In this document: positions 2,063 to 28,278 of the stretch, piece after piece
Position numbering within the stretch: the first letter of the stretch is position 1
Layout of the letters: the number at the start of each line of letters is the position of its first letter
NCBI GenBank assembly: GCA_903847385.1
Contig: CAINDO010000561.1
Coordinates: 10,328 to 74,327, forward strand
Source: an uncultured Myxococcales bacterium
Lineage (GTDB): Bacteria; Myxococcota_A; Bradymonadia; UBA7976; UBA1532
Direction: 5' to 3'
DNA length: 64,000 nt
Made by a program: the position numbers and the translations under genes
Notes under the pieces: generated by a model
What the model saw: the letters and a program-made list of their open reading frames with translations, nothing else
Told to the model about the DNA's origin: nothing
Databases searched by the model: none

Positions 2063-2063
2063 C

Positions 2064-4556: not shown

Positions 4557-4609
4557 TGCCCCGAGCCACGGCGCGTATAAAGCGCCGGCCGCCCCGCCCC
4601 GAGAGTCCG

Positions 4610-5836
4610 ATGCACGTTCTCCTGCTCGCCCTGAACTACTGGCCCGACAAACTCGGCAACGCCCCCCTCATGGTGGGCATGTGCGAGGGTCTGGTCCGCC
4701 TCGGTCATCGCGTGACCGTGGTCTGTGCGTTCCCGCACCACGAGACCGGCCGCATCGAGGCGCCCTACCGGGGTCGCCTCTTCCAGCGCGACCACCACAA
4801 CGGCGTGGACATCCTGCGGACCTATATTTATGCGGGCGAACACGGCACGGCGGCCAAGATGGCCAACTACGCCTCGTTCACCGCCGCCGCGCTCGCCGCC
4901 GCCGCCACCGTGCGGGACGTCGACGTGATCTTCACGCCCTCCCCGCCGCTGACGCTCGGCATCGTCGACCACGCACTCGGGACGGCCCGGCGCATCCCCT
5001 GGGTCTACAATCTTCAAGATCTCTTCCCCGAGGCCGCCGTGCGCCTCGGCGTCTTGAAGAACCCCAAGGTGATCAAGGGCTTCGAACAGCTCGAGGCCTG
5101 GGTCTACCGCAAGGCGACCCGCCTCTGCGTCATCAGCGAGAGCTTCCGCCAGTACCTGCTCTCGAAGGGCGTGCCCGACGACAAGATCTCCATCGTCGAG
5201 AACTACACGGACACGGACCTGATCGTACCGACCCCGACCGCCGGCAACCCCTTCCGGGCCGAGCTCGGCCTGGACGACCGCTTCGTGGTGCAGTTCAGCG
5301 GGCGCATGGGCTACAGCCAGGGCCTCGAGGTCCTGGTCGAGGCCATGCCGCTCCTGGACGACCTGCCGGACCTGCACTGGATGCTCTGTGGAGACGGCCA
5401 GGCCCGCGAGATGCTCGAGACGGCCGTCACCGGCCGGAGCAACGCCACGCTGCTGCCCACCCAGCCCCGCGAGCGCCTGTGCGACCTGCTCAACGCCGCG
5501 GACGTAGGCCTCGCGCCCTTGCGGCACGGCATGGCGGGCACCAGCGTGCCCAGCAAGATCTTCGGCATCCTGGCCTCGGGCCGCCCCGTCGTCGCCGGGG
5601 TGGACGCCGGCAGCGACACGGATGTGATGGTCCGGCGGGCCGACTGTGGCGAGATCGTGCCGCCCGAGGACGCGCAGGCCCTGGCCGCGGCGATCCGCCG
5701 GCTGCACGGCGACCGCGAGCGCGCGCGGCGCCTGGGTGAGAACGGGCGCCGGCACGTCGTGTCGCACCATAGCCAGGCGGCGACGGTCGCGCGGTACGAG
5801 CGGATGCTGCTCGACGTCGTCGCGCGGGGGCGCTGA
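4610..5836 (+). CDS. family 4 glycosyltransferase (WcaI-like)
   Basis: GT-B fold, GT4-like sequence ('MHVLLLALNYWPDKLGNAPL...', C-terminal 'LEAMPLL...GTSVPSKIFGILASGRPVV' E-x7-E region). ATG at 4610 chosen over the track's upstream alternate start. Confidence 0.85.
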   Translation: MHVLLLALNYWPDKLGNAPLMVGMCEGLVRLGHRVTVVCAFPHHETGRIEAPYRGRLFQRDHHNGVDILRTYIYAGEHGTAAKMANYASFTAAALAAAATVRDVDVIFTPSPPLTLGIVDHALGTARRIPWVYNLQDLFPEAAVRLGVLKNPKVIKGFEQLEAWVYRKATRLCVISESFRQYLLSKGVPDDKISIVENYTDTDLIVPTPTAGNPFRAELGLDDRFVVQFSGRMGYSQGLEVLVEAMPLLDDLPDLHWMLCGDGQAREMLETAVTGRSNATLLPTQPRERLCDLLNAADVGLAPLRHGMAGTSVPSKIFGILASGRPVVAGVDAGSDTDVMVRRADCGEIVPPEDAQALAAAIRRLHGDRERARRLGENGRRHVVSHHSQAATVARYERMLLDVVARGR

Positions 5837-5841
5837 CCGAC

Positions 5842-12606: not shown

Positions 12607-13928
12607 AGCTTCACCACCTTGGGGTTGTTCCGGCCCGCGCTCGCCGTCAGGTTGCGCGTGTCGACGATGCGGCGCGCGTGACGGAGGATCTGCTCGGGCT
12701 CGTAGTAGCGGTGATCGGTGACGATGACGACGACGTCGTAGGTCCCCATCTCCGCGTAGCTCAGGGGGCGGCTCTGCATCAGGCGGGCTTCCCCGCCGCC
12801 GTGGGCGAGGTCGATCTCGGGTACGAAGTTGTCCTGGTATTCCACCATCGCTCCCCGCGCGAGCAGGCCGTCGATGACCGGGATCGCCGGGGACTCACGC
12901 CAATCCGTGATGTCCCGCTTGTAGGAGACCCCGAGCACCAGGACCTTGGACCCCCGCAGAGGCCGCGCTTCGCCAACATTGTTGAGGGCGAGCGAAACAC
13001 GGTCGACCACGTAGTCGGGCATGTGGGAGTTGATGTCGTCCGCCAGCTCGATGAAGCGCGTGCGGTAGTTCAGCGTGCGCAGCTTCCAGCTCAGGTAGTG
13101 GGGATCGATGGGGATGCAGTGGCCACCCAGGCCCGGGCCCGGGTAGAACGGCATGAAGCCGAAGGGTTTGGTGGCCGCGGCCTCGATGATCTCCCACACG
13201 TCCAGGCCGAGCTTGTCCGCGATGATGGCGACCTCGTTCACCAGGCCGATGTTCACGGCGCGGAACGTGTTCTCCACCAGCTTGACCATCTCGGCGGCCG
13301 TGGGGCTCGACACCGCCACGACCTTGTCGCAGACCGTGGCGTACAGCGCGTGGGCGATGTCCGTGCAGGTGGGGGTCACGCCGCCGACGATCTTGGGCGT
13401 GTTCTTCACGTTGTAGACCGGGTTGCCCGGATCGATGCGCTCGGGGCTGAAGGCGAGGTGAATGTCCGTGCCGACCTTCAGGCCGGTGGACTCCAGCGCC
13501 GGCGCGACGATCTCGTCCGTCGTGCCCGGGTACGTGGTGCTCTCCAGGATCACGGCCTGACCCGAGCGCAGGTGCTTCACGATCCGCTCCGTGGCGGACA
13601 CGATGTAGCTGATGTCCGGGTCGCGCGTCTTGCGCAGGGGCGTGGGCACGCAGACGCTGATGGCGTCGCAGAGCGCCAGGTCGGCGAAGTCGGCCGTGGC
13701 CTTGAACTTGCCCGAGGCGACGAGGCGGGCGACGTCCTCGGCGGGCACGTCCAGGATGTAGGACTCGCCGGCGTTGAGCGCCTTCACCTTGGCGGGATCG
13801 ATTTCGAAGCCGATCACGGTGAAGCCCGCGTCGGCGAAGCCGGTGGCCAGCGGCAGGCCCACGTAACCGAGGCCGACGACGCCGACGACGGCGGTGCGCT
13901 GGGAGATGCGTTCGAGGATCGTGCTCAT
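12603..13928 (-). CDS. nucleotide-sugar dehydrogenase (UDP-GlcNAc/ManNAc/glucose 6-dehydrogenase family)
   Basis: 'VVGLGYVGLPLA' Rossmann motif, catalytic 'GGHCIPIDP', 441 aa. 4-bp overlap with wzc. Confidence 0.9.
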   Translation of the reverse strand: MSTILERISQRTAVVGVVGLGYVGLPLATGFADAGFTVIGFEIDPAKVKALNAGESYILDVPAEDVARLVASGKFKATADFADLALCDAISVCVPTPLRKTRDPDISYIVSATERIVKHLRSGQAVILESTTYPGTTDEIVAPALESTGLKVGTDIHLAFSPERIDPGNPVYNVKNTPKIVGGVTPTCTDIAHALYATVCDKVVAVSSPTAAEMVKLVENTFRAVNIGLVNEVAIIADKLGLDVWEIIEAAATKPFGFMPFYPGPGLGGHCIPIDPHYLSWKLRTLNYRTRFIELADDINSHMPDYVVDRVSLALNNVGEARPLRGSKVLVLGVSYKRDITDWRESPAIPVIDGLLARGAMVEYQDNFVPEIDLAHGGGEARLMQSRPLSYAEMGTYDVVVIVTDHRYYEPEQILRHARRIVDTRNLTASAGRNNPKVVKL

Positions 13929-14999: not shown

Positions 15000-15983
15000 G
15001 TGAACTCCGAGAGCCTGCGCACCTGCCTGAGAGCGTTCGTCGACGGCGACCGCGCGCTGCCCGCCCTCGGAGCCGAGGACGTGGCCATGGCGTCGGCGCA
15101 CCGTCTGGCGGGCACCCTCTACCACATGCGGGTGCCGTTGGGCCACGCCGAGCGACAATCCGTGCAGCGAACCTGGGCGTCGCAGGCGGCGGCGTACCTG
15201 CAGCGCGTGGCGGTGCTGCGGGCGCAGTGGCCGTCGCGCGCGCCGGCCCCGTTGCTCTTCAAGGGCGCCGACCTCGTCGAGAATCTGTACGGCGATCCCG
15301 GCGCGCGGCGCATGTCCGACCTCGACCTGATGCTGCCCCCCGCCGACTTCGACGCGGTCGCGACGTCGCTCGCGGCCCGCGCGGAGGCCAGCAGCACGCC
15401 CCGGGGCGAGGCCTTCGAGGGCGAGGCGGCCTATGAAATGGGCCTGCGCTTCGGCGACGTCACGCTGGAACTCCACCGTGCGCCGCAGCCGCTCCATCGC
15501 GGGGGGCCGAGCGCGGACGCGCTGTACGCGGCGAGCACGCCGGGCACGCTGGACGGCCTCGCCGTGCGTTTCCCCGCGCCCGAGGACCGCTGGCTGCTGT
15601 GGCTGACCAACCAGGCCAAGGGGTCGTTCCAGGGCGACCTGGCCGATCTGCTCGACCTCTGCCTGATTCTGCGCGCCCTGCCCGCCCCCCTGCCCTGGAC
15701 GCGGCTGCTCGCCCGTGCGCGCGCCGCCGGTCTCTCCCGGCCTGCAAGGCTGGCCCTGCGGAGGCTGGCCCGCGCCGGTCTCTGGAGCGGACCGCTCCCT
15801 GCCGTCGGCGAGGTCTCGGATGCGCTTGCCGACCGTCTGCTGCCCCCGCCGGACGCGCCGGCACTGGACATGCCGGCCTGGCGGTTTCAGGGCCTCAAGC
15901 TCTGGCTGGCCGATCCGTCGCGGCGAGCGGGCGTCTTGGCCCGGGCCGGCGCGACGCTCTGGCGGCGGCTGGACGCGCGCTGA
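15000..15983 (+). CDS. putative nucleotidyltransferase-family protein (uncharacterised NTase, PF14907-like)
   Basis: Real-looking 3' third of the artefactual 1101-aa track ORF. 'FKGADLVENLYGDPGARRMSDLDLMLPP' resembles the uncharacterised-nucleotidyltransferase family. The GTG 15000 start is uncertain (ATG 15087 is an alternative). Confidence 0.5.
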   Translation: MNSESLRTCLRAFVDGDRALPALGAEDVAMASAHRLAGTLYHMRVPLGHAERQSVQRTWASQAAAYLQRVAVLRAQWPSRAPAPLLFKGADLVENLYGDPGARRMSDLDLMLPPADFDAVATSLAARAEASSTPRGEAFEGEAAYEMGLRFGDVTLELHRAPQPLHRGGPSADALYAASTPGTLDGLAVRFPAPEDRWLLWLTNQAKGSFQGDLADLLDLCLILRALPAPLPWTRLLARARAAGLSRPARLALRRLARAGLWSGPLPAVGEVSDALADRLLPPPDAPALDMPAWRFQGLKLWLADPSRRAGVLARAGATLWRRLDAR

Positions 15984-16003: not shown

Positions 16004-16690
16004 TCAGAGCCAGGTCTCGGGCACGAAGATGATGTCGCCCGGCTGGAGTTGCACGTTCTGCTCGCGCCCGAGGCCGATGGCCTCCACGGGGGCGACGAAC
16101 TTCTTCTCGCTGCCGTCCACCACGCGCGTGATCACGGTGCGGTTCTTGTCGGCAAGATCCTTGAAGCCGCCGGCCATCGTGATGGCCTGCACCACGGTCA
16201 TGCTGTCCTCGAAGGCGAACGTCCCGGGTTTGTTGACCTCCCCGAGCACGAAGACCTTCTTGGAGTTGGACTCCTTCACGAAGACGGTCACCTGCGGATT
16301 GCGCAGGAAGCCCTCTTTCAGGCGCTCCGTGAGGTACTCGCTCAGGGCGCCGGGCGTCAGCCCGCCGGCCTTCACCTGCCCGACGAGCGGGTACTGGAAA
16401 GTCCCGTCCGTGGCCACGCGGAACAGGCCCGAGAGCCCCTGCTCCTCATAGACCCGCACCTCGACGACGTCCCCCACGCCGAGCAACGCGCCCTGAAGCA
16501 GCGCCGTCCGGTCGGGCGTCGGCGGCAGCGGCCGCTCCGGTGGCGCCTCGCTGCGCGGCGTACTGCCACATCCCACGATGAGCAGAAGCAGCAGCGGCAG
16601 GAGTCCCCGGAGCGCCCGGCGCAGGTCAGTAATTGACTTGCAGCTCGAGCATGACGAGCTGGCGGCTGTAGGCGACGGGGTCAAGACCAT
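16004..16690 (-). CDS. outer-membrane polysaccharide export (OPX, Wza-like) lipoprotein, short form lacking the C-terminal OM helix
   Basis: Lipobox 'LLLLLIVGC'. Poly_export motif 'GDVVEVRVYEE...F.V..DG....P..G.V...G'. One SLBB domain ('VFVLGEVNKPGTFAF...SMTVVQAITMAGG'). Ends 'FVPETWL' with no amphipathic C-terminal helix. The start is uncertain: ATG 16690 overlaps the upstream gene by ~65 nt; a non-ATG start nearer 'LRRALRG' is possible. Confidence 0.75.
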   Translation of the reverse strand: MVLTPSPTAASSSCSSCKSITDLRRALRGLLPLLLLLIVGCGSTPRSEAPPERPLPPTPDRTALLQGALLGVGDVVEVRVYEEQGLSGLFRVATDGTFQYPLVGQVKAGGLTPGALSEYLTERLKEGFLRNPQVTVFVKESNSKKVFVLGEVNKPGTFAFEDSMTVVQAITMAGGFKDLADKNRTVITRVVDGSEKKFVAPVEAIGLGREQNVQLQPGDIIFVPETWL

Positions 16691-17933
16691 CTCCCTCGGC
16701 GTTGATGGCAACACCGGACTCGAACTCGGACATGTTCTGCTGGCTGGCGACGTCGAGCTTGACGGTCATCCAGTCGCGGGGGTTGAAGCCCGCGTACACG
16801 TTGCCGCGCAGGACCGGGTCCGTGCGGCTGTCGCCCTGTCGATCCACGCCGCCTGCGTCGTCCGAGTAGGCGTAGTGGTCGAAACCGACCCGCCCGCCGA
16901 CGCTGAAGCGCCCGAGGAAGTAGAAGTCGACGCTGCCGTAGACCTGGTTCAGCGTGTAGAAGTTCGCGAACGCCGTGTCGCGCCCGTCGCGGTTGTAGCC
17001 GAGCGAAGCGCGCAGCGCCGGCTCGATCGCGTACGTGAGCTCCGCCGTGGCGATCAGGTTCGAGAACGAGGTGCCCTCGGCGTTGAACGTGTTCTTGTAG
17101 CCGGCCTTGAGCGTCGTCGAAATGTGCCGTGTGACGAGGCCCTTCACGCCGGCGAGCACGAAGAACGGCTGCGCGTCGCGGTTGGTCCGCACCGATGATG
17201 TCTGGCCGCCCGCACCGGCCACGGCCACGTCCAGCTGCTTGTCGTACGAGAGCGAGGTCCAGCCGACCTCGGCGAGGAGCGCGGTCTTCGGCAGGAAACG
17301 CCAGCTCGTCAGGAAACGCAGATGGTGCGCGTCCTTCTCACCCACGCTGGTGTTCAACTCCTCGGCGTCGTCCCCGATGAAGTTCACCGACTGCCAGCGG
17401 TAGCCCAGGCGGAGCTCGAACGGCCGCGAGTCGGGGTTGTCACCGGGCCGGAAGCGCAGGTCGACCCCGAGGCTGTTGTCCAGCATCCGGAAGCCGAACT
17501 CCGTGTCGTCGAAGGCCGGGTTGTCGCGGAAGTTGCCGTCCTCGTGGACCTCGACCGTGATCGGCGAGCGCGGCAGGAATCCGACGGTCGCGTTCAGGTT
17601 CGCCCGATCGATGGTGTTGCGCGCGCTGAACTCCTCGCCGGACTCGAAGTAGTGGCGGTAGCTCAGACCCGCCCCCGCCTGGAGGGAGAGTTTGTTCGGC
17701 GAGCGGTTCTCGAGGCCGACCCCGACGCCGGCGCGCATCAGCGACGACGACTCGGGCTCCTCGCCCGTGTCGTCGAAGAAGACGTTGTTGTCGAACGCGC
17801 CCTGCACGAAGGCGTCCGGGTGGATGACGAGATCCCCCGCCCGGATGCCCGGCCCCTCGGCGTGCGCGAGCCCGGTCGCCGAAACGACGAGGAGGGCGGC
17901 CCGAAAGAGGGGTCTCTGCACACGCGTGATCAT
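16626..17933 (-). CDS. outer-membrane beta-barrel protein (candidate OPX partner / GltH-NfsH-like)
   Basis: Signal peptide 'LLVVSATGLAHA'. 435 aa of alternating amphipathic beta-strand pattern rich in G/Y/F/N/D, ending '...LQVNY'. Immediately upstream of and overlapping the OPX gene. Confidence 0.7.
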   Translation of the reverse strand: MITRVQRPLFRAALLVVSATGLAHAEGPGIRAGDLVIHPDAFVQGAFDNNVFFDDTGEEPESSSLMRAGVGVGLENRSPNKLSLQAGAGLSYRHYFESGEEFSARNTIDRANLNATVGFLPRSPITVEVHEDGNFRDNPAFDDTEFGFRMLDNSLGVDLRFRPGDNPDSRPFELRLGYRWQSVNFIGDDAEELNTSVGEKDAHHLRFLTSWRFLPKTALLAEVGWTSLSYDKQLDVAVAGAGGQTSSVRTNRDAQPFFVLAGVKGLVTRHISTTLKAGYKNTFNAEGTSFSNLIATAELTYAIEPALRASLGYNRDGRDTAFANFYTLNQVYGSVDFYFLGRFSVGGRVGFDHYAYSDDAGGVDRQGDSRTDPVLRGNVYAGFNPRDWMTVKLDVASQQNMSEFESGVAINAEGDGLDPVAYSRQLVMLELQVNY

Positions 17934-17961
17934 CCGGACGTCCTCGTCGCCTTCCTACGCT

Positions 17962-18525
17962 TCAATAGGCCAAGGTGGCGGGAAACGGACGATCGATGTC
18001 GATCGGCTCGCCGGCCAGGATGTCGCCCTCGGTCGGGTCGTCCTGCCGGATGTCGGAATCGATGGTGCTCTCGACCTCGGTGCCGCCGGTGTACTGCGAC
18101 TGCTCACCGACGCAGCCCTCGATCTCCACGCGGAACGCCTCGACCCTCGCGCGGGCGAGGTCGATCTTCGTCACGTTGTGGTGGATGAGCTCGGGGCTCT
18201 TCGCGCCGATGGCCTCGCGGAGGGCCTGCCCGGAGAGCTCGCCGATCTGGACCAGGCCGCGGATGGCCTTCACCTTCGCGTTGATGCAGTTGTACCGCAT
18301 CAGGTCCTTCTCGCCGCGGGCCTGCTCCAGCCGATCGATGCCCTGCTTCAGGGTGTCCTGCATCTGGTCGATGGAGGTCGACGACTGCTCGAGGACCTCG
18401 TCGTCCGAGCGCTTCTCCGCGGGGTTGGCCCCGGCGGTGGGCCCCGAGGTCGCTGCCGCGACTGCGCCTGCAGCGCAGAAGCCGACGAGCGTGGCCACGA
18501 GGGCGAAGCGGACTGTACGAATCAC
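17962..18525 (-). CDS. hypothetical secreted protein
   Basis: Signal peptide 'VRFALVATLVGFCAAGAVAAA'. Largely helical, acidic C-terminus. No recognisable domain. Confidence 0.55.
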   Translation of the reverse strand: MIRTVRFALVATLVGFCAAGAVAAATSGPTAGANPAEKRSDDEVLEQSSTSIDQMQDTLKQGIDRLEQARGEKDLMRYNCINAKVKAIRGLVQIGELSGQALREAIGAKSPELIHHNVTKIDLARARVEAFRVEIEGCVGEQSQYTGGTEVESTIDSDIRQDDPTEGDILAGEPIDIDRPFPATLAY

Positions 18526-18632
18526 GGGAGCCTCCTGCCTGCGGCTTACTACTTTATGGACCCCGGTCAGTCAACGATACACTCAAAATCCTCTGAGCAA
18601 GTATCGGCACGACGGCAGGAGATTTCGAGGGG

Positions 18633-20033
18633 TCAATTCGAGGGCGCGAAGATGAAGGGGAACGAGACCGTCACCGTGCCACCTTCGGGGGGCGGGAAGC
18701 GCCAACGGTCCATCTGGCTCTTGATGCACTCGGCCACGGCCGGTTCGCCCATGGAGTCCGACTTCGCGGAGACGTCCATCACGCGGCCGCCTTCGTTGAT
18801 GGTGAACTGCATCACGATCTTGCCCTGGAGCTGCGGGTTGCGCTTGAGCTCCTTCTCGTAGCAGCCCTTCACGCCGCCGATGCGGCCCTTGACCGCCGAA
18901 GCGATCTTGCTGGTCTCCAGGGTGCCGGTGCCGAAGGTCTCCGAGGGCTCGGCGGCCTTCACGGTGCCCTTGACCTGGACCTCCTGGCCCTTGCTGCCGG
19001 ACTCGACGTTGCCCGTCGCGCCCTCGGCGTTGAGGTCGTCGCTCTTGAGCGTGCTGATCTTGCCCGTCCCGGCGGCGCCGGCGCGGCGGTCGCGGGCCTG
19101 GGTGTTGTTGTCGGCCACGGCGACGCCGGTGGCGCCCTCGAACGCGGTGTTGATGGCGACGTCTGCGCGATCGTTCCGCAGCGTGTCCACGATGGACGAA
19201 CCCTCGGCGCCGATGCCGGAGCCGAGCACGCCGATGATGGTCTTGCTGGCGACGGCCTTCTTCACGTCCTCGGCGTGCGCCTTCGCGTCCACCTCGGGCT
19301 TGGGCTTGTCGTCGGCGACGACCTTGGGCTTGTCGTCGACCCGCGGGCGCGGCGGCTCGTCCTTCTTCTTGGCGACCTCTTCCTTCTTCTCGTCCGCCTT
19401 CTCGTCCTTCTTCTCGTCCTTCTTTTCCTCGACCACCTTGGGCGGCTTCGGCTTGGTGATGATCTGGACGATGCGGTCGGGGAGTTGTTCGATGCCGACG
19501 GGCTTCTCGGGCACGTCCATGGTGACGACGTACACGACCAGCGCGATCTGCATCACGAGGCTGCCCGTCAGCGTGGCCGTGAACGGCCAGTCCATGCTGT
19601 GCATCCAGCCGCCCTTGACGTTGGCGGGGAGCTGCAGGCGCGAGGGCGGCGGCGGCGGCATGACGAACTGGAAGAGCAGCGTGACGTCGCCCACGACGAC
19701 CTTGCCGCGGCTCTTCTCGGAGAGCGGCAGGGTCCAGAACTCGCCCTTGCGATCGGCGAGCTTCTTGGCGACCACCCCCTTGAAGTCCAGCACGGCGTCG
19801 TCGATGGAGACGCGGCCGTCCATGCCGTCCTTGAAGACGAGGTGGTACACGCCGCTCTTCAGCTCGAAGAGCACGTGGCTGCGCGCGAAGGGCGCCGTCG
19901 GCAGGACGAAGGTGTTGCGCGGCGACTGGCCGATCGTGACGGGATCGCGCTTCCGGAGCAGCCGCTCCTCGATGATCTTCCCGCTCTGGATGATCCCGAT
20001 GCGCAGGATCTTCCGGTCGTTTCTCTGGGCCAT
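18633..20033 (-). CDS. FHA-domain / TonB_C-domain bitopic inner-membrane protein (GltG/AgmX/NfsG-like)
   Basis: N-terminal FHA-like region ('VTIGQSPRNTFVL...ARSHVLFE...GVYHLVF...GRVSID'). One TM ('LTGSLVMQIALVVYVV'). Pro/Lys/Glu/Asp-rich linker. C-terminal TonB_C-like domain ('GKIVMQFTINEGGRVMDV...AECIKSQMDRWRFPPPEGGTVTVSFPFIF'). Confidence 0.7.
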   Translation of the reverse strand: MAQRNDRKILRIGIIQSGKIIEERLLRKRDPVTIGQSPRNTFVLPTAPFARSHVLFELKSGVYHLVFKDGMDGRVSIDDAVLDFKGVVAKKLADRKGEFWTLPLSEKSRGKVVVGDVTLLFQFVMPPPPPSRLQLPANVKGGWMHSMDWPFTATLTGSLVMQIALVVYVVTMDVPEKPVGIEQLPDRIVQIITKPKPPKVVEEKKDEKKDEKADEKKEEVAKKKDEPPRPRVDDKPKVVADDKPKPEVDAKAHAEDVKKAVASKTIIGVLGSGIGAEGSSIVDTLRNDRADVAINTAFEGATGVAVADNNTQARDRRAGAAGTGKISTLKSDDLNAEGATGNVESGSKGQEVQVKGTVKAAEPSETFGTGTLETSKIASAVKGRIGGVKGCYEKELKRNPQLQGKIVMQFTINEGGRVMDVSAKSDSMGEPAVAECIKSQMDRWRFPPPEGGTVTVSFPFIFAPSN

Positions 20034-20105
20034 CTGCGTTGTCCCTTACCTGTCTGACCTTCTACGCGATTCGACATTCCGCCGGGGGAAAGGTTCCCGT
20101 GCGGT

Positions 20106-20354
20106 TCAGAACGGTTCCTTCTCGACGCTCTGCAGAATCTCGGGCAGGAAACTCTTCTTCGGCTCGAGGCCTTTGAAGTTCACGTCGCCCTTCTGGAGGA
20201 TGTAGAAGGCCTCGGGCTTCTGAATCTGACCCTCGACCTTGAGGGCGTCGATCTGGATGACCTTGCCTTTCCCCTTGTCGCGCTTCTTCTCCTGCGCGGC
20301 GGCGGGGGTGGCGGCGATGATCAGGGCCAGACAGGCCAGGACGAAAGTCTTCAT
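20106..20354 (-). CDS. small secreted protein (GltF/NfsF-like position)
   Basis: 82 aa, signal peptide 'FVLACLALIIAATPAAA'. 4-bp overlap with the upstream TPR lipoprotein gene. Confidence 0.5.
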   Translation of the reverse strand: MKTFVLACLALIIAATPAAAQEKKRDKGKGKVIQIDALKVEGQIQKPEAFYILQKGDVNFKGLEPKKSFLPEILQSVEKEPF

Positions 20355-21616
20355 TTCTCTCCCCCATCGGCGGAAGCGGGCGCCGCTGCGGGCGCGGGCT
20401 TCGGGTCCTTGCGGGCGGCTTCGGCCTTCTTCTGCTCGACCACGATGCGCTTGTTGGCCTCGGCGATGTACTGATCGACGGGGTCGTTGGCGGCGGGTCG
20501 GCCGGGGGCCTGCTTGTAGCGCTGGAAAAAGTCGACGGCCTGCTGCAGGCGCGACAAGGGCTCGACGCCCGGGAGCTGGCCGTCCAGGTAGAGGATGCCC
20601 AGGTTGAACAGGACATCCCCCGAGTTCGGATTGAGCTCGAGCGCGCGCTTCATGGCAGCATCTGCATCGGCGTACTTCTGCTGGCCCTTGAGCGCGTTGC
20701 CCAGGTTCATCTGGGCCGCCAGGAACTGCGGGTGCCGGCTCAGCGACTGGCGGAACATGCCCTCGGCGCCGGCGTAGTCGCCGGCCTCGTGATAGACCAG
20801 CCCGAGATCGTTGTAGACCTCGGCGCTCGCGCCCCCGGGGAGCGCGACGGCTTTCTCCAGCTGCAGGCGGGCCTGGGGCTTCTCGTTGAGCGCGACGTAG
20901 CTGCGCGCCATCTTGGCGTAGGGCTCGGGATCGTTGGGATCGTTGGCCGAAGCGCTGGCGAGCACGGCGATGGCCAGCTCGTGTTTGCCCTGGCGCGCGT
21001 AACCGGCGCCGAGGACCTTCATGGCCTCGACGTTCTTCTCATCCGCCCGAAGGACGCCCGTCGCGTCGGCGATCGCGCCGGCGACGTCGTTGTTCGCCAA
21101 CTTGAGGCGCGCGACCGCGTTGCGCACGCCCGTGCTCTCCGGGGCCTTCTCCAGCCGCTCCTGCGCGAAGGACAACGCCGCGGCGGCGTCCCCCTTGCGG
21201 AGCATGATCTGGGCGATGGCGGTGACGGCGGGGCCGAACTCGGGGCGGGCGTCGAGGGCCTGCTTGTAGAAGCGACGCGCCTCGACGTCGTTGCCCTGCC
21301 GCTCGGCGAGGACACCGAGGTTGTACAGCGGCTCGGGCGCAGAGCTGTCGGTGGAGGCGGCGGACTCGTAGGCGCGGCGCGCGGCGTCCAGATTGCCGGC
21401 GGCGGCCTCGCGCTGACCCTGCTCGAGCTGGCCGGCGATCTCCGGGGAAACCGTCGCCTGGGGCGCGGCCTCGGGGATGTGCGTCGAGCCCGAGGAGTCG
21501 CCGGCGACGGGCGCAGCGCCTCCAGAGGCGGCGGTACCGGACTTGCCCTTGGGGCCACCGCCACAGGCGGACGTCAGGGTGAGCGCGACGAGCGCGATGG
21601 TCAGGTGGGTCTTCAC
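20351..21616 (-). CDS. TPR-repeat lipoprotein (GltE/AglT/NfsE-like)
   Basis: Lipobox 'LTLTSAC', then repeated TPR-like helices (Y/A/L/G/N periodicity). 4-bp overlaps on both sides. Confidence 0.75.
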   Translation of the reverse strand: MKTHLTIALVALTLTSACGGGPKGKSGTAASGGAAPVAGDSSGSTHIPEAAPQATVSPEIAGQLEQGQREAAAGNLDAARRAYESAASTDSSAPEPLYNLGVLAERQGNDVEARRFYKQALDARPEFGPAVTAIAQIMLRKGDAAAALSFAQERLEKAPESTGVRNAVARLKLANNDVAGAIADATGVLRADEKNVEAMKVLGAGYARQGKHELAIAVLASASANDPNDPEPYAKMARSYVALNEKPQARLQLEKAVALPGGASAEVYNDLGLVYHEAGDYAGAEGMFRQSLSRHPQFLAAQMNLGNALKGQQKYADADAAMKRALELNPNSGDVLFNLGILYLDGQLPGVEPLSRLQQAVDFFQRYKQAPGRPAANDPVDQYIAEANKRIVVEQKKAEAARKDPKPAPAAAPASADGGEK

Positions 21617-24600
21617 TTCTCACCCTCCTCGGCTTCGGCCGGCGCCGCGTCCGAGGGCGCGGGGGTGGGCGGCGGCGGAGGCGCGGTGAGGAGCCGGGCC
21701 GGGGTCATGTCCTCGCCGGAGAACACGCGCCGCTCCTCCTTGAAGAGCGGGTAGTCCGCCGGCTTGAACTTGTTCAGCGAGGTCAGGATTCGCTTCGTCC
21801 ACTCGTTCGTGACCTTGAACTCGCGGGCCTTGTCGTAGGCCGTGACGTAACGCTTGACCGCCTCGTCCTCGATCGGCAGCGCGATGTCCTCGAGCTGGGT
21901 CCGGTAGGCGTCCTGCTCCTCCTCGGAGAGCCCCGGGGGAATCGGAGCGTCGTACAGCGCCTGCGCGAAGACCTGGTACATGTGGCCGAGCCGGTAGAAC
22001 GCCGCGAGCGTCCACTCGAACGCCTTGTAGTCGATGACCTCGGCGTACTGGCGCTGCAGGTCCTTGATGCGGCCCTGCATGTCCTTGATGGTCTTGCCCT
22101 GGTTCTGGAGCGAGCCGGTGAGCTTGAGGGCCTCGTACTTCTGGAACTCGAGCTCGACGATCTTGAAGCGCGCCTTGGCCGGGTGGACCGCGATGGGCGT
22201 GCCGCCCTGGAGGCCACGGGCGTTGAACTCGTTGATGATGCGGTCCCAGGTCTGGCGCGCCGAGCGGCCGTTGCCCTGCTCCTCGTAGATGTCCGCCGAC
22301 CGCGAGAGGCCGGTGATGACCTTCTCGGCGTTCGCCCGATCCACGCCGTACTTCTTGATGAAGGTGTCGTAGATGCGCAGGGCGTTGCGGGTGTCCTTGA
22401 GCTTCTCGTAGTTCCGAGCCGCGCGGAAATAGGTCTCCGCAGCGTCGGGCTGGCCCGGGAACATGTCCGCGTACTTCTCGAAGTTCGCCGCGGCGCGCTG
22501 GTACTGCTGGGTCTCCTCCTGCAGTTCCGCCGCCTGGAGCAGCGACTCGGAGCGGTGCTCCGACGCCGGGTACTTCTCCATCAAGAGCAGGTGGCTGCTG
22601 ATGGCGCGGTCGTAGTCGAAGAACCGCTCGGAGTTCACCGCCACGCGGAAGAGCGCCTCGCTGGCGAACTCGCTCTGCGGGTACTCCTGGTAGATGCGCT
22701 GATAGGTGTTCGTCGCCGACTCGAAGCGCCGGACCTGCTCGAACGCCACGGCGGCGTTGTTCAAGGCCTTGTCGGCGAACTTGTTCTTGGCGTCCTTATC
22801 CACGAGCTCGACGTACTTGAGCGCGGCGGCCTCGTACTTCTTGTCGTTGAACAGGGCCTCGGCCTGCTTGAAAGCCGCGCCGGTCTCGAGCTTGCGGATC
22901 TGCTCCGCCAGGACACCCTGCTCCTCTTTGGAGCCGATGTTCGCGGCGCTGAGCTTCCCGGCCCAGAGCTTCATGTTGTCCCAGTCGTTCGCGGCGCGGT
23001 ACGTCTGAATGATGTTGTTCGCGGCGAAGTAGGCGACCTTCTCCTGCGGGTACTTCTCGACGACGAAGGAGAACCACTTCCGGGCCTCGTCGTAGTGTTT
23101 GTACTCGTAGAAGACCTCGCCGGCCTTGTAGGCCACGCGGGGCAGCTTGCCGGCGTCGGCCGGGTCCTTGAGGCCCTTCTCGACGTAGGCGACGCGAGCG
23201 TTCACGAGCTTCATGACCACCGGCGGGATCGGCTCCGGCTCGATGACCCGGATCGACTCGGTGCCATCGCCGACGGGTTTGTCCCCCGTGGCCTTGGCCG
23301 CCGTGCTCTCGATGGGCTGGTTGAGCAGCGACGGGCGTGACTCGATCTTGCCGCTGTCGATGTCCTGCTTGACCGTCGACTCGTTCGACAGGATCGCGCT
23401 GAAGCCGGCGAGTTCCTGGTACTTCGTGCCCAGGCTCGAGTCGCGCACGGCCTCGTACTGGGTGGCGGCCTCGCCGAACCGGAACGAGTAGAAAAGGCAC
23501 TCGGCGTAGAAGAAGCCGAGCTCGTAGGCGTTCTCGGAGGTCGGGTACTTGCGCAGGTAGTTGTCGTAGGCGACGGCGGCGAGTTTGTACTCCTTGATCG
23601 CCTCGTCCTCGGCCTCGACCTTGCCCGCCTTCGCTTCTTCTTTGAGGGCCTGCGCGCGCGTGTGGTGGTACTGGGCGGCGGTGATCAGCGCCCCCTCGAC
23701 CAGCTTCTCCGCGTTCCGGATGACCTCGGTGTTCGAGCGGTTCGCCTCGTGCCAGGCGGAGCCCTCGCCATAGCTGCGGGCCAGCGTGTCGCGCTCGGCG
23801 AAGGCGTCGTCGAAGCGACGCAGGCGCTCGTAGGCGACGATCACGTTCTGGCTGAGCGCCGGGTTCTCCGGGTTGTTCGGGAACTTCTTGATGAGGAACC
23901 GCGTGGCCTCGATGCTCTCCTCGTACTTCGAGTTGTCGAAGTAGATCTGAGCGATGCCCTTGAGGACCTCGACCTCGTAGGGCTTGTCGCCCGACAGGTA
24001 GCGCAACGCCCGGTTGAAGCCCGCGTCGTCGTCCGGCCGACCGTCGCCGTCCCAGTCCTCTTCCTGGAGCGAGATCGCCAGGTACTGGATGGCCTCGGCG
24101 CGGAGGTCCGAGCCCTTCGCCCCGGACTTGGCCGCCTGCTCGTCGCTGTACTCGACCAGCGACTTGAAGCGCTTGATGGCGTCGTCGTACTGGTCGTTGC
24201 GGTAGTAGGTCCAGGCGAGCTTGTACAAGGCCTTGTCGTAGAAGGGCGTGTCCTTGTACGCGAGGACCTTGGAGTAGGCGTCGATCGCCTTGGGCAGGTC
24301 GTTGTAGTCGAAGAAGTACTCACCGATGCGCAGCCACGCCTCGGGAACAAACTTGCTGTCCGGGTACTTCTCCACCAGCGTCGTGAACTGGTCCAGCGCC
24401 GGCTTGTCCTCGCCCATCTCCTTGAGGCAGTAGCCCTTCAGGTACATGGCGCCGTCGGCGTTGCGGTTGTCCGGCCAGCGCCCGAGGAGGCGGTCGAAGA
24501 GCGAGATCGTCGAGCGGTAGTCCTGGCGCGGCTCCGAGGGCGGCTCGGGCATCTCGCCGGCGTCGAACTTCTTCAGGTCGCCCTCGTACTGCTCGAGGGC

Positions 24601-25128
24601 CTCGAGGTAGCCGTCGTAGGCCTTCTCGAAGTGCAGCTCGGCGAGCCGGAACAAGGCGTCCGGCGTGTACTGCGGGTGGTCCGGGTAGCGGTTGAGGAAC
24701 TCCTCGAAGCGCAGGATGGCCTCTTCGCGGCGCTTGCGCTCCTCCTCGACGTACTTGGAGACCGCGGCGTCGTACTTCTGCTGCACCTCGACCTTCTTCA
24801 GGGCGAACTGCTGCTCGACGAGCTTGGCGACGTCCTTGCGGAAGTCGACGATCTCCTTCTCGAAGCTGGCCATCTCCTCGGCCAGTTCGATCATCTCGGG
24901 GGACACGCCCCCCTGCTCCGTTGCGGGGGCCGGGGCTGCCGCCACGGGGGCCGCAGAGGCGGGCGCGGAGGCTTCGGAGGCGGGTGCGGGGGCTTCCGAG
25001 GCCGGGGCCGCGGGGGCGGCATCCTGACCGTGGGCGTCCACGAGGGGCGTGGAGGTCAAGGCCGCCGCGAGCAGGAGCTGCTGGCGTCCGCGATGCCATG
25101 CGCGCCGTTTGAGGGTCCGCTCAGTCAC
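21613..25128 (-). CDS. large secreted TPR-repeat protein, 1171 aa (GltD/AgmU/NfsD-like)
   Basis: Signal peptide, Ala/Pro-rich linker, then >20 TPR-like repeats ('YPDHPQYTPDALFRLAE', 'YPDSKFVPEAWLRIGEYFF', ...). Size and architecture match the AgmU family. Confidence 0.8.
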   Translation of the reverse strand: MTERTLKRRAWHRGRQQLLLAAALTSTPLVDAHGQDAAPAAPASEAPAPASEASAPASAAPVAAAPAPATEQGGVSPEMIELAEEMASFEKEIVDFRKDVAKLVEQQFALKKVEVQQKYDAAVSKYVEEERKRREEAILRFEEFLNRYPDHPQYTPDALFRLAELHFEKAYDGYLEALEQYEGDLKKFDAGEMPEPPSEPRQDYRSTISLFDRLLGRWPDNRNADGAMYLKGYCLKEMGEDKPALDQFTTLVEKYPDSKFVPEAWLRIGEYFFDYNDLPKAIDAYSKVLAYKDTPFYDKALYKLAWTYYRNDQYDDAIKRFKSLVEYSDEQAAKSGAKGSDLRAEAIQYLAISLQEEDWDGDGRPDDDAGFNRALRYLSGDKPYEVEVLKGIAQIYFDNSKYEESIEATRFLIKKFPNNPENPALSQNVIVAYERLRRFDDAFAERDTLARSYGEGSAWHEANRSNTEVIRNAEKLVEGALITAAQYHHTRAQALKEEAKAGKVEAEDEAIKEYKLAAVAYDNYLRKYPTSENAYELGFFYAECLFYSFRFGEAATQYEAVRDSSLGTKYQELAGFSAILSNESTVKQDIDSGKIESRPSLLNQPIESTAAKATGDKPVGDGTESIRVIEPEPIPPVVMKLVNARVAYVEKGLKDPADAGKLPRVAYKAGEVFYEYKHYDEARKWFSFVVEKYPQEKVAYFAANNIIQTYRAANDWDNMKLWAGKLSAANIGSKEEQGVLAEQIRKLETGAAFKQAEALFNDKKYEAAALKYVELVDKDAKNKFADKALNNAAVAFEQVRRFESATNTYQRIYQEYPQSEFASEALFRVAVNSERFFDYDRAISSHLLLMEKYPASEHRSESLLQAAELQEETQQYQRAAANFEKYADMFPGQPDAAETYFRAARNYEKLKDTRNALRIYDTFIKKYGVDRANAEKVITGLSRSADIYEEQGNGRSARQTWDRIINEFNARGLQGGTPIAVHPAKARFKIVELEFQKYEALKLTGSLQNQGKTIKDMQGRIKDLQRQYAEVIDYKAFEWTLAAFYRLGHMYQVFAQALYDAPIPPGLSEEEQDAYRTQLEDIALPIEDEAVKRYVTAYDKAREFKVTNEWTKRILTSLNKFKPADYPLFKEERRVFSGEDMTPARLLTAPPPPPTPAPSDAAPAEAEEGEK

Positions 25129-27391
25129 CGGTGGCCTCTTTCAACTCGCGCTCCATGACCTCGAGCTCTTCGCGCTCCTTGGCCCGGGTGTCGGCAATCA
25201 GCTTCGACTGGTCCTGTTTCTGCTTCCAGGCGATGTCCACGTTGCCGACGTCCGCCTCGAGCACGACGGAGGCGATGCGGTCGAGCACCGCGCGGAAGCT
25301 GCGGGCCGCGATCGTGCCGCCGAGCGACTCGGTCTGCCCCTGATAGGTCACGAGTTCACCGCCGTAAGTCCCGATGTTCTGCCGCTCGCGGTCCACCTGA
25401 TGCTTGAGCTCGGCGACCTTCTCATCGACCACCGTCGCGGTCTTCTGAAGGAAGGCGACCGCCCGCGCGTCGAGCTGCGAGATCCGGCTGCGTTCGGAGG
25501 CGGCGACCGGCGCGCCGTGCCCGGCCAGATAGGCCTCCTCGGCGTCCAGGGCCGCGGCGAGCGACTGGCGGATCTTCTCGTCCTCGTTCGAGGCCGAATC
25601 GTTCACGCCGACGCTGAGGCGCTGCATCTCGATGCCACGCGCCATCTTCTCGTACTCGCCCCGGAGGGCGACGGTCTCGGCGAGCTCCCGGGCGACCTGG
25701 TCGTAGACGGCCTTCTCTCGGCCCGTCGCCCCCTTGCTGGCGACCGTGTCCTCGACGTACTTGGAGATCGCGGCCAGCTGGGCCTCGAGTCCACGAATCT
25801 GCACGTTGAGCGCGAAGCCGGTCTTGTCGAGCTCGCGGATCTGGGCGTCGACCTTCTTGTCGCGCTGCTGGAGCGCCTGGGCCGTGCGGGGGATCTCGGC
25901 GTAGCGGGACTCCCAGCCGCGGCGGGCCTCGCGCAGGCGGGCGTACTCCGGATCGCTGCGGAGCGCCGGCGTCGCCGTCTTCTCGTTGAGCTGGACGCGC
26001 GCGGCGGCGAGCGTCGCGCGCGCCTCGAGCCCCTGCAGGACGCCCTCGAGCAGGTTCGGGAACACCTCGACGCGGTTGGGCGCGTTGAGGAGCGCGTCCA
26101 GCCGCTCGATGGTGCGCTGCGCCTCGTCGACGTCCCGCTTCTCCTGGGCGAGGTCTCCGACGAGCACGACGGCCCGGTCGGCCTCCATGTCCGGGCCGGC
26201 GAACTCGGCGGCCTTGGCCGGCAGGAACGTGGTGAGATCGAAGTTGGCCAGGTTGCGGCCGATGACCCGGTTGAAGTGCCCCTCGAGATCACCCTTCGCG
26301 CCGTCGACGACCTTCTGCATGTCGTCGCGGATGGGGTTGAACTCGTAGAGGACCTGATTGAAGGAGCTCTGGGCTTCTTCGTAGCGGCCGAGCATCAGGA
26401 GGAGCCGGCCCTGCAAGAGTCGCGAGTCCGCGCCGTGGAGAACGTCGGGCTGCGCGATCAGGAGGATCTCGAGCTTCCGGACGGAGGCCTCGTAGTCCTT
26501 CTCTTTGATGGAGATCCAGACGCTCTCGTAGACGCCCTTGTCGTAGTGCTTCGAGGCCTTGTCGATGGACTCGTAAGCCTCGACCGCCTTCACCAGCTCG
26601 CCGCGCTCGTACAGAATGCGCGCGACGGCCAGGCGGGCGAGGTCGCCGATCTCGGCCTCCTCGGCCTCGTCCGCCTGCCCCGCGGGGTCGGCGGCGACGG
26701 AGATCGCGTGTTCGAAGGCGCTCGTGGCCTCCGCGAGTTTGTTCTGCCGAATGAACGCGACACCGGCGAAGTACAGCGAGCGCCGGTGGAGCGCGTGGCT
26801 CTCCGGGATGCGCTGGAACCAGGCCGTCGCCTCGGCGAAGTTCGACTGCCGATAGTGGAACTTGCCGATCGCGTAGTAGAGCGTCGGCTCCTCGCCCTGG
26901 TTGGCCAGCTCACCGGCGCGGGCCAGGTAGGTCTGCGCAGCGGCGGCGTCGTGCGTCGCCAGCGCGATCTCGAGCAACCGCGCCACGGACTGCTGCCGCT
27001 GGTTCGGCGTCCCGATGCTCGTCACCTCGGCGTAGTACTGCGAGGCCGGGCGATAGTTCCGCAGGGCGAAGAGGGACTCGGCGAGATAGAAAAGCGCGTC
27101 CCGATAGGCCGGGTGCGAGCGGTTCTTCGAGTCGTCGACCACGTCGAGCAGGGCCATGGCCGCCCGGTCGTAGTCCTTCATGATGAAGAGAAGCTGACCG
27201 TCGTTCAGCCGCGCGGTGAGCCGATTGCTCCGCTCCATCATCTCGGGCACGAGGTATCGCCGCTCGAGGTTCGAGAGCGACTCGTCCACCTGCTGCAGGT
27301 CCACCCGAGCCCCGCCGAGGTCGGCAGCGAACGCGGGAACACCGATCAAGAACGCGCACGCCTGGAGCGCGCGCCTGCTCCCGCGCTTCAT
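25121..27391 (-). CDS. secreted TPR + coiled-coil protein, 756 aa (possible GltC/NfsC-like)
   Basis: Signal peptide 'ACAFLIGVPAFAA'. N-terminal TPR-like repeats, C-terminal coiled coil. 8-bp overlap with the downstream gene. Confidence 0.7.
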   Translation of the reverse strand: MKRGSRRALQACAFLIGVPAFAADLGGARVDLQQVDESLSNLERRYLVPEMMERSNRLTARLNDGQLLFIMKDYDRAAMALLDVVDDSKNRSHPAYRDALFYLAESLFALRNYRPASQYYAEVTSIGTPNQRQQSVARLLEIALATHDAAAAQTYLARAGELANQGEEPTLYYAIGKFHYRQSNFAEATAWFQRIPESHALHRRSLYFAGVAFIRQNKLAEATSAFEHAISVAADPAGQADEAEEAEIGDLARLAVARILYERGELVKAVEAYESIDKASKHYDKGVYESVWISIKEKDYEASVRKLEILLIAQPDVLHGADSRLLQGRLLLMLGRYEEAQSSFNQVLYEFNPIRDDMQKVVDGAKGDLEGHFNRVIGRNLANFDLTTFLPAKAAEFAGPDMEADRAVVLVGDLAQEKRDVDEAQRTIERLDALLNAPNRVEVFPNLLEGVLQGLEARATLAAARVQLNEKTATPALRSDPEYARLREARRGWESRYAEIPRTAQALQQRDKKVDAQIRELDKTGFALNVQIRGLEAQLAAISKYVEDTVASKGATGREKAVYDQVARELAETVALRGEYEKMARGIEMQRLSVGVNDSASNEDEKIRQSLAAALDAEEAYLAGHGAPVAASERSRISQLDARAVAFLQKTATVVDEKVAELKHQVDRERQNIGTYGGELVTYQGQTESLGGTIAARSFRAVLDRIASVVLEADVGNVDIAWKQKQDQSKLIADTRAKEREELEVMERELKEATGD

Positions 27392-27394
27392 GCC

Positions 27395-28207
27395 TTACCT
27401 GTCTTCCTCGGCCTTGCCGTCCGCTGCGGCAGTGGGCGCGCCGCGCTTGACGTCCAGAAGTTCGGTGTCGAAGCGGATGGCCGGGCGGTCCTTGAGGTCC
27501 GTCGTCATGCCACCCTTTTCGTAGCCAACGACCTTCAGGCGCGCCAGCTTGCCCTCCTCGGCGCGGAAGGTATAGGAGCTGCGAAGCGTGAACACGTAGC
27601 CGTTCAGGTACGAGAAGATGCCGTAGCCGTTGCCACGGTAGACCATCACGACGGAGACGAGGTGGTTGCCGGGCACGATCGGACCGTTGAAGATCTCGAT
27701 CTCCTCCTGGTCGTCCAGCTTGCCCTCGCCCTCGGCGCGGCTGAAGATTTGCGAGCCGTCGAGGCTGTAGCTGACCTTCTCGAGCCGGAAGCTGGACCCC
27801 ATCTCGTTGCGGTGGACGATCTGGGCCTCGGAGCCGGCGATGCTGCTCGCCAGGACGGTCTCCTTGAGGATGGCCAGCCTGGACTTGGAGCGGAAGATCT
27901 TCTCTTTGAGCTCGTTGACGTGGGTCTCGAGCTCCTGAACCTTGAGCTTGTAAGCGTCGTCGCCGTTGCCGGCTGCCTGCGCCGGGGCCTCGGTGGGCTT
28001 GGCCACCTCGACCTCGGCGGGCGCGCCGGGCGGCGCAGGTGTCGCCGCTGCGGCGGGCGCTGCGCTCGCCGGGGCCGGGGCGGCTGACGGCGCGAGGCTC
28101 GCCGGCGCCGTGGCCGGGGAGGGCGCACTCGCAGGCGCCCCCTGACCGACGGCCCAGCCCGGTGCCGCAAGGAGGATCGTCGCGAAAAGGAGAATGAGGC
28201 TTCGCAT
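27395..28207 (-). CDS. secreted hypothetical protein (first gene of the operon)
   Basis: ATG 28207 preceded by GGGAG at -7. Signal peptide 'MRSLILLFATILLAAPGWAVGQ', Ala/Pro-rich linker, short coiled coil, beta-rich C-terminal domain. The track's upstream alternate start is rejected. Confidence 0.6.
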   Translation of the reverse strand: MRSLILLFATILLAAPGWAVGQGAPASAPSPATAPASLAPSAAPAPASAAPAAAATPAPPGAPAEVEVAKPTEAPAQAAGNGDDAYKLKVQELETHVNELKEKIFRSKSRLAILKETVLASSIAGSEAQIVHRNEMGSSFRLEKVSYSLDGSQIFSRAEGEGKLDDQEEIEIFNGPIVPGNHLVSVVMVYRGNGYGIFSYLNGYVFTLRSSYTFRAEEGKLARLKVVGYEKGGMTTDLKDRPAIRFDTELLDVKRGAPTAAADGKAEEDR

Positions 28208-28249
28208 TCGAGGACTCCCTACGGCGCAGACACCCGGGGTGGTTCGTCG

Positions 28250-28278
28250 ACCTAACACAGCCCCTTTCGGTATGTCAA
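28250..28278 (-). promoter_or_regulatory. candidate sigma70-type promoter for the glt-like/OPX operon
   Basis: Minus-strand TTGACA (28278-28273), 17-nt spacer, TTAGGT (28255-28250). ~40 nt upstream of the GGGAG SD and ATG 28207. Confidence 0.3.

Follow-up and report, generated by a model that had tools for sequence, protein, structure and literature searches.

Nine minus-strand open reading frames (ORFs), found in a 64,000-nucleotide stretch of an uncultured Myxococcales genome (GenBank assembly GCA_903847385.1, contig CAINDO010000561.1; hereafter the window), run from 28207 to 16004 in the order A-C-D-E-F-G-X-barrel-OPX and place a Glt-like set of envelope proteins beside a translocon of the outer-membrane polysaccharide export (OPX) type. 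This array is very probably a distant orthologue of the 'G4' cluster of Glt paralogues (MXAN_1919-1924) together with wzpB-wzaB of Myxococcus xanthus. On balance, we consider it best explained as a Tol/TonB-like core-complex transducer coupled to an OPX/porin translocon of the biosurfactant polysaccharide (BPS) type, and we give even chances to a genuine functional coupling of the two modules. Gene content, homologies, folds and conserved synteny are the directly supported parts of this explanation. With the same gene order found in about 80 species-level genomes, the array is far beyond chance, and sequence comparison indicates that the fusion of Glt-like and OPX genes is ancestral and conserved, not peculiar to the window.

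The link to M. xanthus runs through the complete genome of Archangium violaceum, in which the corresponding region reads (lengths in residues) mglB(159)-mglA(195)-254-788-1096-429-89-452-cNMP_binding(149)-187-426-203(OPX). All nine window proteins have collinear one-to-one homologues in this region, with identities of 24-55%. We take mglB and mglA to be MXAN_1926 and MXAN_1925, and counting from this pair maps the Archangium layout on MXAN_1924→1915. Published glt homologues in this interval are MXAN_1919 (447 aa), 1920 (91), 1921 (490), 1922 (1111) and 1923 (809) (PMC3169522, supplement), with MXAN_1922 described as the gltD homologue of G4, a cluster to which no function was assigned (PMC3169522). 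In supplement file 5 of that study the Glt-counterpart column is reversed for the MXAN_1919-1923 rows (1919→MXAN_2541 … 1923→MXAN_4867), so the row mapping was fixed by protein sizes and the main text, both of which the printed column contradicts. In the BPS pathway, MXAN_1916 is WzpB and MXAN_1915 is WzaB (PMC7310880). Collinearity with Archangium, the MXAN numbering, gene sizes and the likeness of the OPX to the crystallised protein 9n9a_A (below) together point to the window array as a G4 plus wzpB/wzaB orthologue.

The two loci agree in gene order and are similar in protein sizes (809/1111/490/91/447 aa in M. xanthus versus 756/1171/421/82/466 aa in the window), and both include A and X as flanking genes, a barrel and a Class-3 OPX. 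Unlike the G4 locus, the window has obg-rplU in place of mglBA upstream, carries no cNMP-binding gene between G and X, and has Wzc, Wzy and phosphoglycosyltransferase (PGT) genes adjoining, which in M. xanthus lie 1 Mb off; there wzaB has been called 'orphan-like', separated by 1.016 Mb from the remaining BPS genes, and the set is contiguous in Sandaracinus (PMC7310880). A reading of the window made from its sequence alone (the sequence-only reading) had contrasted it with M. xanthus, where nfs and exo were said to be separate loci. The contrast that this implies does not hold, as by numbering MXAN_1919-1923 of G4 adjoins wzpB/wzaB (MXAN_1916/1915), and dozens of Myxococcota are arranged likewise. 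A fusion unique to one genome was also considered and is ruled out by the recurrence of the pairing in dozens of genomes. In several Myxococcia-type loci, mglB-mglA lies directly upstream of A on the same strand, with 89-96% identity between loci (L082 847-1925, L078 20-1098, L071 and L055).

Gene G encodes the putative inner-membrane transducer, with a cytoplasmic FHA-like domain (residues 9-124), a transmembrane (TM) helix (149-171), a disordered Lys/Glu/Pro-rich linker (183-350) and an AgmX/PglI domain (356-464) resembling the TonB C-terminal domain (CTD). In its AlphaFold2 model an N-terminal beta-sandwich and a C-terminal alpha/beta domain are both predicted with confidence, and Foldseek returned FHA domains and TonB C-terminal domains as best matches. 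G matched the NCBIfam GltG model (E 1.5e-42, 146 bits, cut-off 650; residues 28-465 on model positions 224-648 of 650) and the NCBIfam AgmX/PglI tail (E 1.8e-30); the model, Foldseek and the tail match all agree with the FHA-TM-TonB_C architecture proposed from sequence. G occupies the position of MXAN_1919 and is 36% identical to its Archangium counterpart. M. xanthus GltG has been mapped as FHA 1-114, FHA 190-329, TM helix 330-348 and TonB-CTD 544-640, with the second FHA and TM helix modelled to bind AglR (PMC11761067). Because alignment to the GltG model begins at position 224, G keeps the motor-proximal FHA and TM helix but is missing the first ~200 residues of GltG, and with them the FHA that binds GltI.

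The proteins encoded upstream of G are predicted to form the periplasmic part of a core complex. C is periplasmic, with an N-terminal tetratricopeptide repeat (TPR) region that matches TPR families in Pfam and a C-terminal coiled coil; it matches NCBIfam gliding_GltC (E 9.8e-15, 54 bits, cut-off 450) and is 28% identical over its full length to Archangium C788, in the position of MXAN_1923. D, a periplasmic TPR protein in the position of MXAN_1922, has generic YbgF/BamD-type TPR matches only, and is 38% identical to Archangium D1096 over 1087 aa. D matched no NCBIfam GltD model even at E ≤ 10, so its homology to GltD rests on orthology and on the published assignment of MXAN_1922 (PMC3169522), from which we take it to be the GltD/AgmU-like member. 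E is a GltE/AglT-like TPR lipoprotein (lipobox LTSAC) in the position of MXAN_1921, with 32% identity to Archangium E429 and a match to NCBIfam gliding_GltE spanning model positions 4-389 of 411 (E 2.7e-36, 125 bits, cut-off 225). The small secreted protein F, in the GltF position and that of MXAN_1920, is 55% identical to Archangium F89; it matches NCBIfam gliding_CglF at E 1.6e-4 (22 bits, cut-off 90), and its Archangium orthologue does so at E 2.7e-10. All of these NCBIfam Glt matches are significant yet below equivalog cut-offs, and the Archangium proteins give the same sub-threshold pattern.

In the product of gene A (N-terminus MRSLILLFATILLAAPGWAVG), a signal peptide, a linker rich in Ala and Pro and a coiled coil accompany a C-terminal domain that is conserved. 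This protein holds the position of MXAN_1924 and is 54% identical to a 254-aa Archangium protein whose gene separates mglA from the GltC-like gene; searches of Pfam, NCBIfam and the PDB gave no match. Several claims of the sequence-only reading are borne out by these comparisons: TPRs in C, D and E and the lipobox in E are seen by Pfam and in the sequence, and the homology of the central genes to gltC-D-E-F-G agrees with the sub-threshold NCBIfam matches and the Archangium collinearity. Profile similarity of the 1171-, 421- and 466-aa proteins to the Glt families held for the last two, which match the GltE and GltG models, and failed for the first.

Since C, E, F and G match Glt models and Nfs offers a precedent for pairing with a polysaccharide, the array could be this organism's own gliding (Agl-Glt) or spore-coat (Agl-Nfs) machine. 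We regard this as very improbable. The array resembles Agl-Glt in its C, D, E, F and G homologues, in the FHA-TM-linker-TonB-CTD architecture of G and in the predicted transducer logic, but its scores fall far under the equivalog cut-offs (54/450, 125/225, 22/90 and 146/650 bits), G lacks the first, GltI-binding FHA, and the cluster has no motor genes and no homologues of GltA/B/H/K, CglB, GltI or GltJ. Its outer-membrane partner, moreover, is a polysaccharide porin with an OPX closest to WzaB, a BPS exporter, and its proteins are orthologous to G4, whose MXAN_1922 mutant moves normally. Agl-Nfs handles the Exo/MASC spore-coat polymer, which is exported via the Class-3 OPX and barrel ExoA/ExoB, and is thus a Glt paralogue set functionally paired with a Wzx/Wzy polysaccharide (PMC3858216); in the window, such a pairing is suggested by synteny. 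However, nfs and exo are separate loci, whereas the window OPX and barrel lie inside the array and the OPX is WzaB-like, and the eight-gene nfsA-H includes the NfsA/B/H barrels, whereas the window has no small barrels of the A/B/H type. This gene content, like the synteny with G4, speaks against assigning the array to Nfs.

The downstream end of the array encodes the translocon. X, in the position of MXAN_1917, is a secreted, mostly helical protein encoded between G and the barrel; it is 35% identical to the Archangium 187-aa protein and had no Pfam, NCBIfam or PDB match. The barrel gene, in the position of MXAN_1916 and 24% identical to its Archangium counterpart (426 aa), encodes an outer-membrane beta-barrel porin with a signal peptidase I (SPI) signal peptide and, at its N-terminus, a conserved GPGIRxGD segment. 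A PDB sequence search with the barrel gave nothing meaningful, and A, X and the barrel matched no NCBIfam Glt model. Its predicted structure is AlgE-like with 18 strands, and the solved folds closest to this model include AlgE, PgaA, BcsC and PelB. WzpB and EpsX have been published as AlgE-like 18-stranded barrels partnering Class-3 OPX proteins (PMC9601211, PMC9603273), and on its modelled fold the window barrel is a partner porin of this WzpB/EpsX type. It had earlier been assigned to the Glt/Nfs set; an AlgE-like 18-stranded fold encoded beside a Class-3 OPX contradicts that assignment, and a GltH-like identity is ruled out because fold and OPX partner are of the Wzp type.

The last gene was read from sequence as a short Wza-like OPX, and Pfam concurs: the product, a lipoprotein by its type II signal peptide, has Poly_export and a single SLBB only, with no D3/D4 region and no Wza_C outer-membrane helix. 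By this domain content it is a Class-3 (D1D2), WzaB-like OPX. Its best PDB match, 9n9a_A (186 aa; E 3e-57, 55% identity end to end), was deposited as 'Polysaccharide export protein' and is taken to be the crystallised M. xanthus Class-3 OPX WzaB; OPX proteins from Myxococcaceae genomes with the same locus layout are 75-77% identical to it. The gene holds the position of MXAN_1915, with 44% identity to the Archangium counterpart (203 aa). WzaB has an R106-R107 motif for Wzc and an F203-F204 motif for the Wzp porin (PMC12819527). The window OPX has R-N and W-L at these positions, so that a basic residue is kept at R106 and a hydrophobic pair at the C-terminus. Of 54 OPX sequences, 50 have R or K at the R106 position and 53 have a C-terminal dipeptide of hydrophobic or aromatic residues. 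Like the OPX of the EpsY-EpsX/WzaB-WzpB translocons, that of the window is short, lipidated and devoid of an outer-membrane helix, has the hydrophobic C-terminal dipeptide, and is encoded beside an AlgE-like barrel and near a Wzc of the PCP-2a (polysaccharide co-polymerase) class. The window differs in its Glt-like neighbours, of which the searched text of the published models has none (PMC9601211, PMC9603273, PMC12819527).

Conservation of the array was surveyed beyond the window. A pattern scan for G-like proteins found relatives in 288 stretches of species-representative genomes, of which 80 loci were kept, all from metagenome-assembled genomes (MAGs) and mostly labelled as Myxococcota lineages, with Polyangia, Myxococcaceae, Nannocystaceae and Bradymonadia among the labels; a protein search with G added the cultured genera Archangium, Hyalangium and Vitiosangium. 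Iterative hidden Markov model (HMM) searches were then run on the stop-to-stop ORFs of 81 loci. The genes of a locus always lay on one strand, and their order did not vary. Where a locus offered ≥9.5 kb upstream, C was present in 51/52, D in 52/52, E in 52/52 and F in 51/52 cases, and A in 32/52, a count lowered because the motor, where present, pushes A past the 10-kb flank. With ≥5 kb downstream of G, X was present in 58/61, the barrel in 56/61 and OPX in 49/61 loci, so OPX genes within glt-like clusters, for which the sequence-only reading had suggested a survey, are widespread.

Linkage to the Glt-like set is far more frequent for the translocon than for Wzc. In the 50 loci with ≥9 kb downstream, OPX was found in 41 and the barrel in 46, compared with 16 for Wzc and 14 for the sugar dehydrogenase, and the linkage of Glt-like set and translocon holds down to ~35% identity in G. 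A contiguous state (OPX, NTP_transf_5, epimerase, UDP-sugar dehydrogenase, PCP-2a Wzc, PGT, AsnB-like, GT4, Wzy_C) occurs in the window, in its nearest relatives L001-L003 and in others. Two loci, L018 and L022, have no X, barrel or OPX within 7-10 kb of G and carry FG-GAP, carbamoyltransferase and amine oxidase genes downstream; in L018, a full motor-containing core set is followed by a 1608-aa FG-GAP protein and a carbamoyltransferase. No alternative partner theme emerged from the downstream genes of these two loci. Nine loci have a cNMP_binding protein between G and X that is absent from the window (L082 11398-11847, L078 12372-12818, L018 12404-12856 and six more), joined in L078 and L018 by a 326-342-aa protein with no assigned function. 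This insertion hints at possible cyclic-nucleotide regulation in some lineages.

In 24/67 loci, F and G are separated by the motor, which consists of a MotA/ExbB gene with two ExbD genes. The published 'core complex' has the order C-D-E-motor-G, as in Geobacter Gura_3077-3070 (PMC3169522), and the C-D-E-(F)-motor-G order of these 24 relatives resembles that core complex (gltC-D-E-G with aglRQS, in Geobacter and gammaproteobacteria). The window differs in having no motor genes, either lost or never present. The sequence-only reading had noted that AglRQS/TolQR-type motor genes were missing, and the negative results of tblastn and Pfam searches confirm it.

The missing motor fits a further alternative, in which the TPR proteins are a passive scaffold or chaperone for the AlgE-like barrel (compare AlgK, the PgaA N-terminus and the BcsC TPRs), with G only an anchor and no motor work. 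The closest folds of the barrel, among them AlgE, PgaA, BcsC and PelB, and weak matches of E and D to PgaA and BcsC TPR models are in its favour. We nevertheless find it quite improbable, given that motor genes are embedded in the 24 related clusters, that G retains the motor-binding FHA and TM module with a TonB-like C-terminal domain, and that C-D-E-(motor)-G is the published proton-motor core complex.

We propose instead that the coupled array would work as two modules. In the first, a Tol/TonB-like force transducer, G would be anchored in the inner membrane, its membrane-proximal FHA and TM helix docking on a TolQR/AglRQS-type proton motor presumably encoded elsewhere in the genome. The disordered linker would span the periplasm and the TonB-CTD-like domain would engage the TPR protein D, with E, F and C completing a periplasmic scaffold as modelled for GltC-G. 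In the second module, the Class-3 OPX and 18-stranded barrel would export an acidic polymer of the BPS type, the product of the adjoining Wzc/Wzy/PGT genes. Proton-motive force relayed from G through D, (E,F) and C to the porin/OPX could then serve porin gating, polymer pulling or surface distribution. This relay is drawn by analogy with Agl-Nfs, which moves the Exo polymer, and with the AlphaFold Agl-Glt model, which contains AglR5QS-GltG, pairs the GltG C-terminal domain with GltD, has GltF bridging GltC, D and G, and docks GltC to outer-membrane barrels by strand insertion (PMC11761067). Physical coupling, energisation and co-transcription are the parts of the proposal that we infer.

Several observations weigh against this coupling. 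The OPX is not adjacent in 12/61 loci, a few of which also lack X and the barrel, and tblastn of the 64-kb window and Pfam searches of its large ORFs found no MotA/ExbB or ExbD gene. A plasmid-insertion (polar) mutant of MXAN_1922 had wild-type motility on hard and soft agar (PMC3169522), and BPS-minus strains are compromised in spreading dependent on type IV pili (PMC7310880); since the polar mutant spreads normally, wzpB/wzaB may have their own promoter, at least in M. xanthus, and BPS export under laboratory conditions may not require G4. The trans-envelope model of WzcB-WzaB-WzpB needs no extra factors (PMC12819527), insertions at the G/X gap in relatives are compatible with a separate X-barrel-OPX transcription unit, and the correspondence with M. 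xanthus was made via Archangium violaceum, gene numbering and the 9n9a_A sequence, not with the M. xanthus proteins themselves, whose G orthologue was absent among the best 120 protein matches to G.

Some of these points would be expected of two independent systems that happen to be neighbours, with the C-G set serving another envelope function (for example, Tol-Pal-like tethering or another cargo), the barrel and OPX working with Wzc only, and the synteny simply inherited. A WzcB-WzaB-WzpB complex described as complete alone (PMC12819527), the lack of any reported spreading defect in the polar MXAN_1922 mutant, the 107-nt G/X gap as a hotspot for 1.5-5.4 kb insertions in relatives and the 12 loci missing OPX are all consistent with independence. 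This alternative is possible but somewhat unlikely, since the linkage is kept down to ~35% G identity across Polyangia, Myxococcaceae, Nannocystaceae and Bradymonadia MAGs and outlasts relocation of the biosynthesis genes, strand and order are constant in all loci, and X and A are family-specific and conserved with both modules.

Coupling of transducer and translocon, which we prefer, would bear on systems already known in pieces. G4 has been known since 2011 and WzaB/WzpB since 2020-2022, and the window is a divergent new member of this gene set. A literature search found no statement of a link between G4 and the translocon: the sole paper in which Glt/Agl and OPX/WzaB/WzpB terms occurred together was an unrelated CglB paper, the OPX papers PMC12819527, PMC9603273 and PMC7310880 gave no mention of Glt-like neighbours (Glt and Nfs terms), and no main-text mention of MXAN_1919, 1921, 1923 or 1924 was found in the searched literature. 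Since 2011 no function has been assigned to the G4 and G5 paralogues or to the core complex at large, and how polymers pass Class-3 OPX/porin translocons, and with what energy need, is still being worked out. Recurrence of the pairing in most of ~80 species-level genomes suggests a job for the G4-type set; its conserved linkage thus offers a useful lead on G4 and core-complex function that can be tested, not a new kind of system. A true coupling would link gliding motility, in its origin, to polysaccharide secretion; without it, the region is a well-conserved pair of neighbours. As a tentative extension, which we hold rather doubtful, the Agl/Glt core complex may have begun as a motor-driven accessory of a Class-3 OPX/barrel translocon, and in most Myxococcota may still be one, with gliding and Nfs as later specialisations. 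Export or surface handling would, on this origin, be energised from the inner membrane via a TonB-like GltG protein and a TPR scaffold.

The ORF check of the window, which has a G+C content of ~70%, reproduced exactly the nine minus-strand genes, lengths and junction spacing reported from sequence (Table 1). Junctions are a 3-nt gap at A/C, an 8-nt overlap at C/D, 4-nt overlaps at both D/E and E/F, and gaps of 72 nt at F/G, 107 nt at G/X and 28 nt at X/barrel. This spacing fits a single operon, and co-transcription is plausible. The F/G and G/X gaps are the junctions that bear insertions in relatives, the motor at F/G and the cNMP-binding gene or 1.5-5.4 kb at G/X. A sigma-70 promoter scan found none, terminator-like matches were no more numerous than in shuffled sequence, and the G/X and post-OPX intergenic RNA folds were no better than shuffles (z -0.85 and +0.13). 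Since the OPX frame has no ATG, GTG or TTG from 16684 to 16576, the gene should start at ATG 16690 or at a non-canonical codon. The former entails a 65-nt overlap with the barrel gene and an unusually long n-region; candidates for the latter are CTG or ATT near 16636-16645, just past the barrel stop and upstream of the clear lipobox LLLLLIVGC. The array is preceded on its own strand by obg and rplU, and at its downstream end an NTP_transf_5 gene runs convergently towards the OPX stop.

Table 1. Genes of the array and of the adjoining polysaccharide locus, in window positions.
Feature	Position	Strand	Length (aa)	Remarks
Gene A	27395-28207	-	270	ATG start; alternative GTG at 28258
Gene C	25121-27391	-	756	
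Gene D	21613-25128	-	1171	
Gene E	20351-21616	-	421	
Gene F	20106-20354	-	82	
Gene G	18633-20033	-	466	
Gene X	17962-18525	-	187	
Barrel gene	16626-17933	-	435	
OPX gene	16004-16690	-	~200	start codon uncertain
Wzy_C protein	1824-4556	+		Pfam; locus coordinates approximate
GT4 glycosyltransferase	4244-5836	+		Pfam
AsnB-like amidotransferase	5773-7764	+		Pfam
Bac_transf priming transferase	7806-9713	+		Pfam
Wzc PCP-2a with fused kinase (Wzz+GNVR+AAA_31)	10426-12558	-		Pfam
UDP-sugar dehydrogenase	12606-13928	-		Pfam
NAD epimerase/dehydratase	13968 to ~14915	-		Pfam
NTP_transf_5	15000-15983	+		Pfam; convergent with OPX

The sequence-only reading placed the array beside a Wzc/Wzy/PGT locus, and Pfam indeed finds Wzc, Wzy_C and Bac_transf there. 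This locus is collinear with those of relatives L001/L010 and, from its gene families, probably represents BPS-type Wzx/Wzy polysaccharide genes; no Wzx flippase was seen in the window. A sensor kinase (HAMP/HisKA/HATPase; 2-2062, plus strand) lies next to the Wzy gene at the left edge of the window. Elsewhere, a ParA/AAA_31 (BY-kinase-like) protein (47273-48328, minus strand) gave a weak match from the Wzc kinase domain, and D and E gave weak TPR-level tblastn matches to a 731-aa protein (34364-36559, minus strand) with an N-terminal Zn_ribbon_4 and C-terminal TPRs. A type IV pilus set at 55413-62978 on the plus strand comprises pilB-like (T2SSE+MshEN) and pilT-like (T2SSE) genes, a TPR protein, pilC (T2SSF) and a PilS-like kinase (6TM_PilS+PAS+HisKA).

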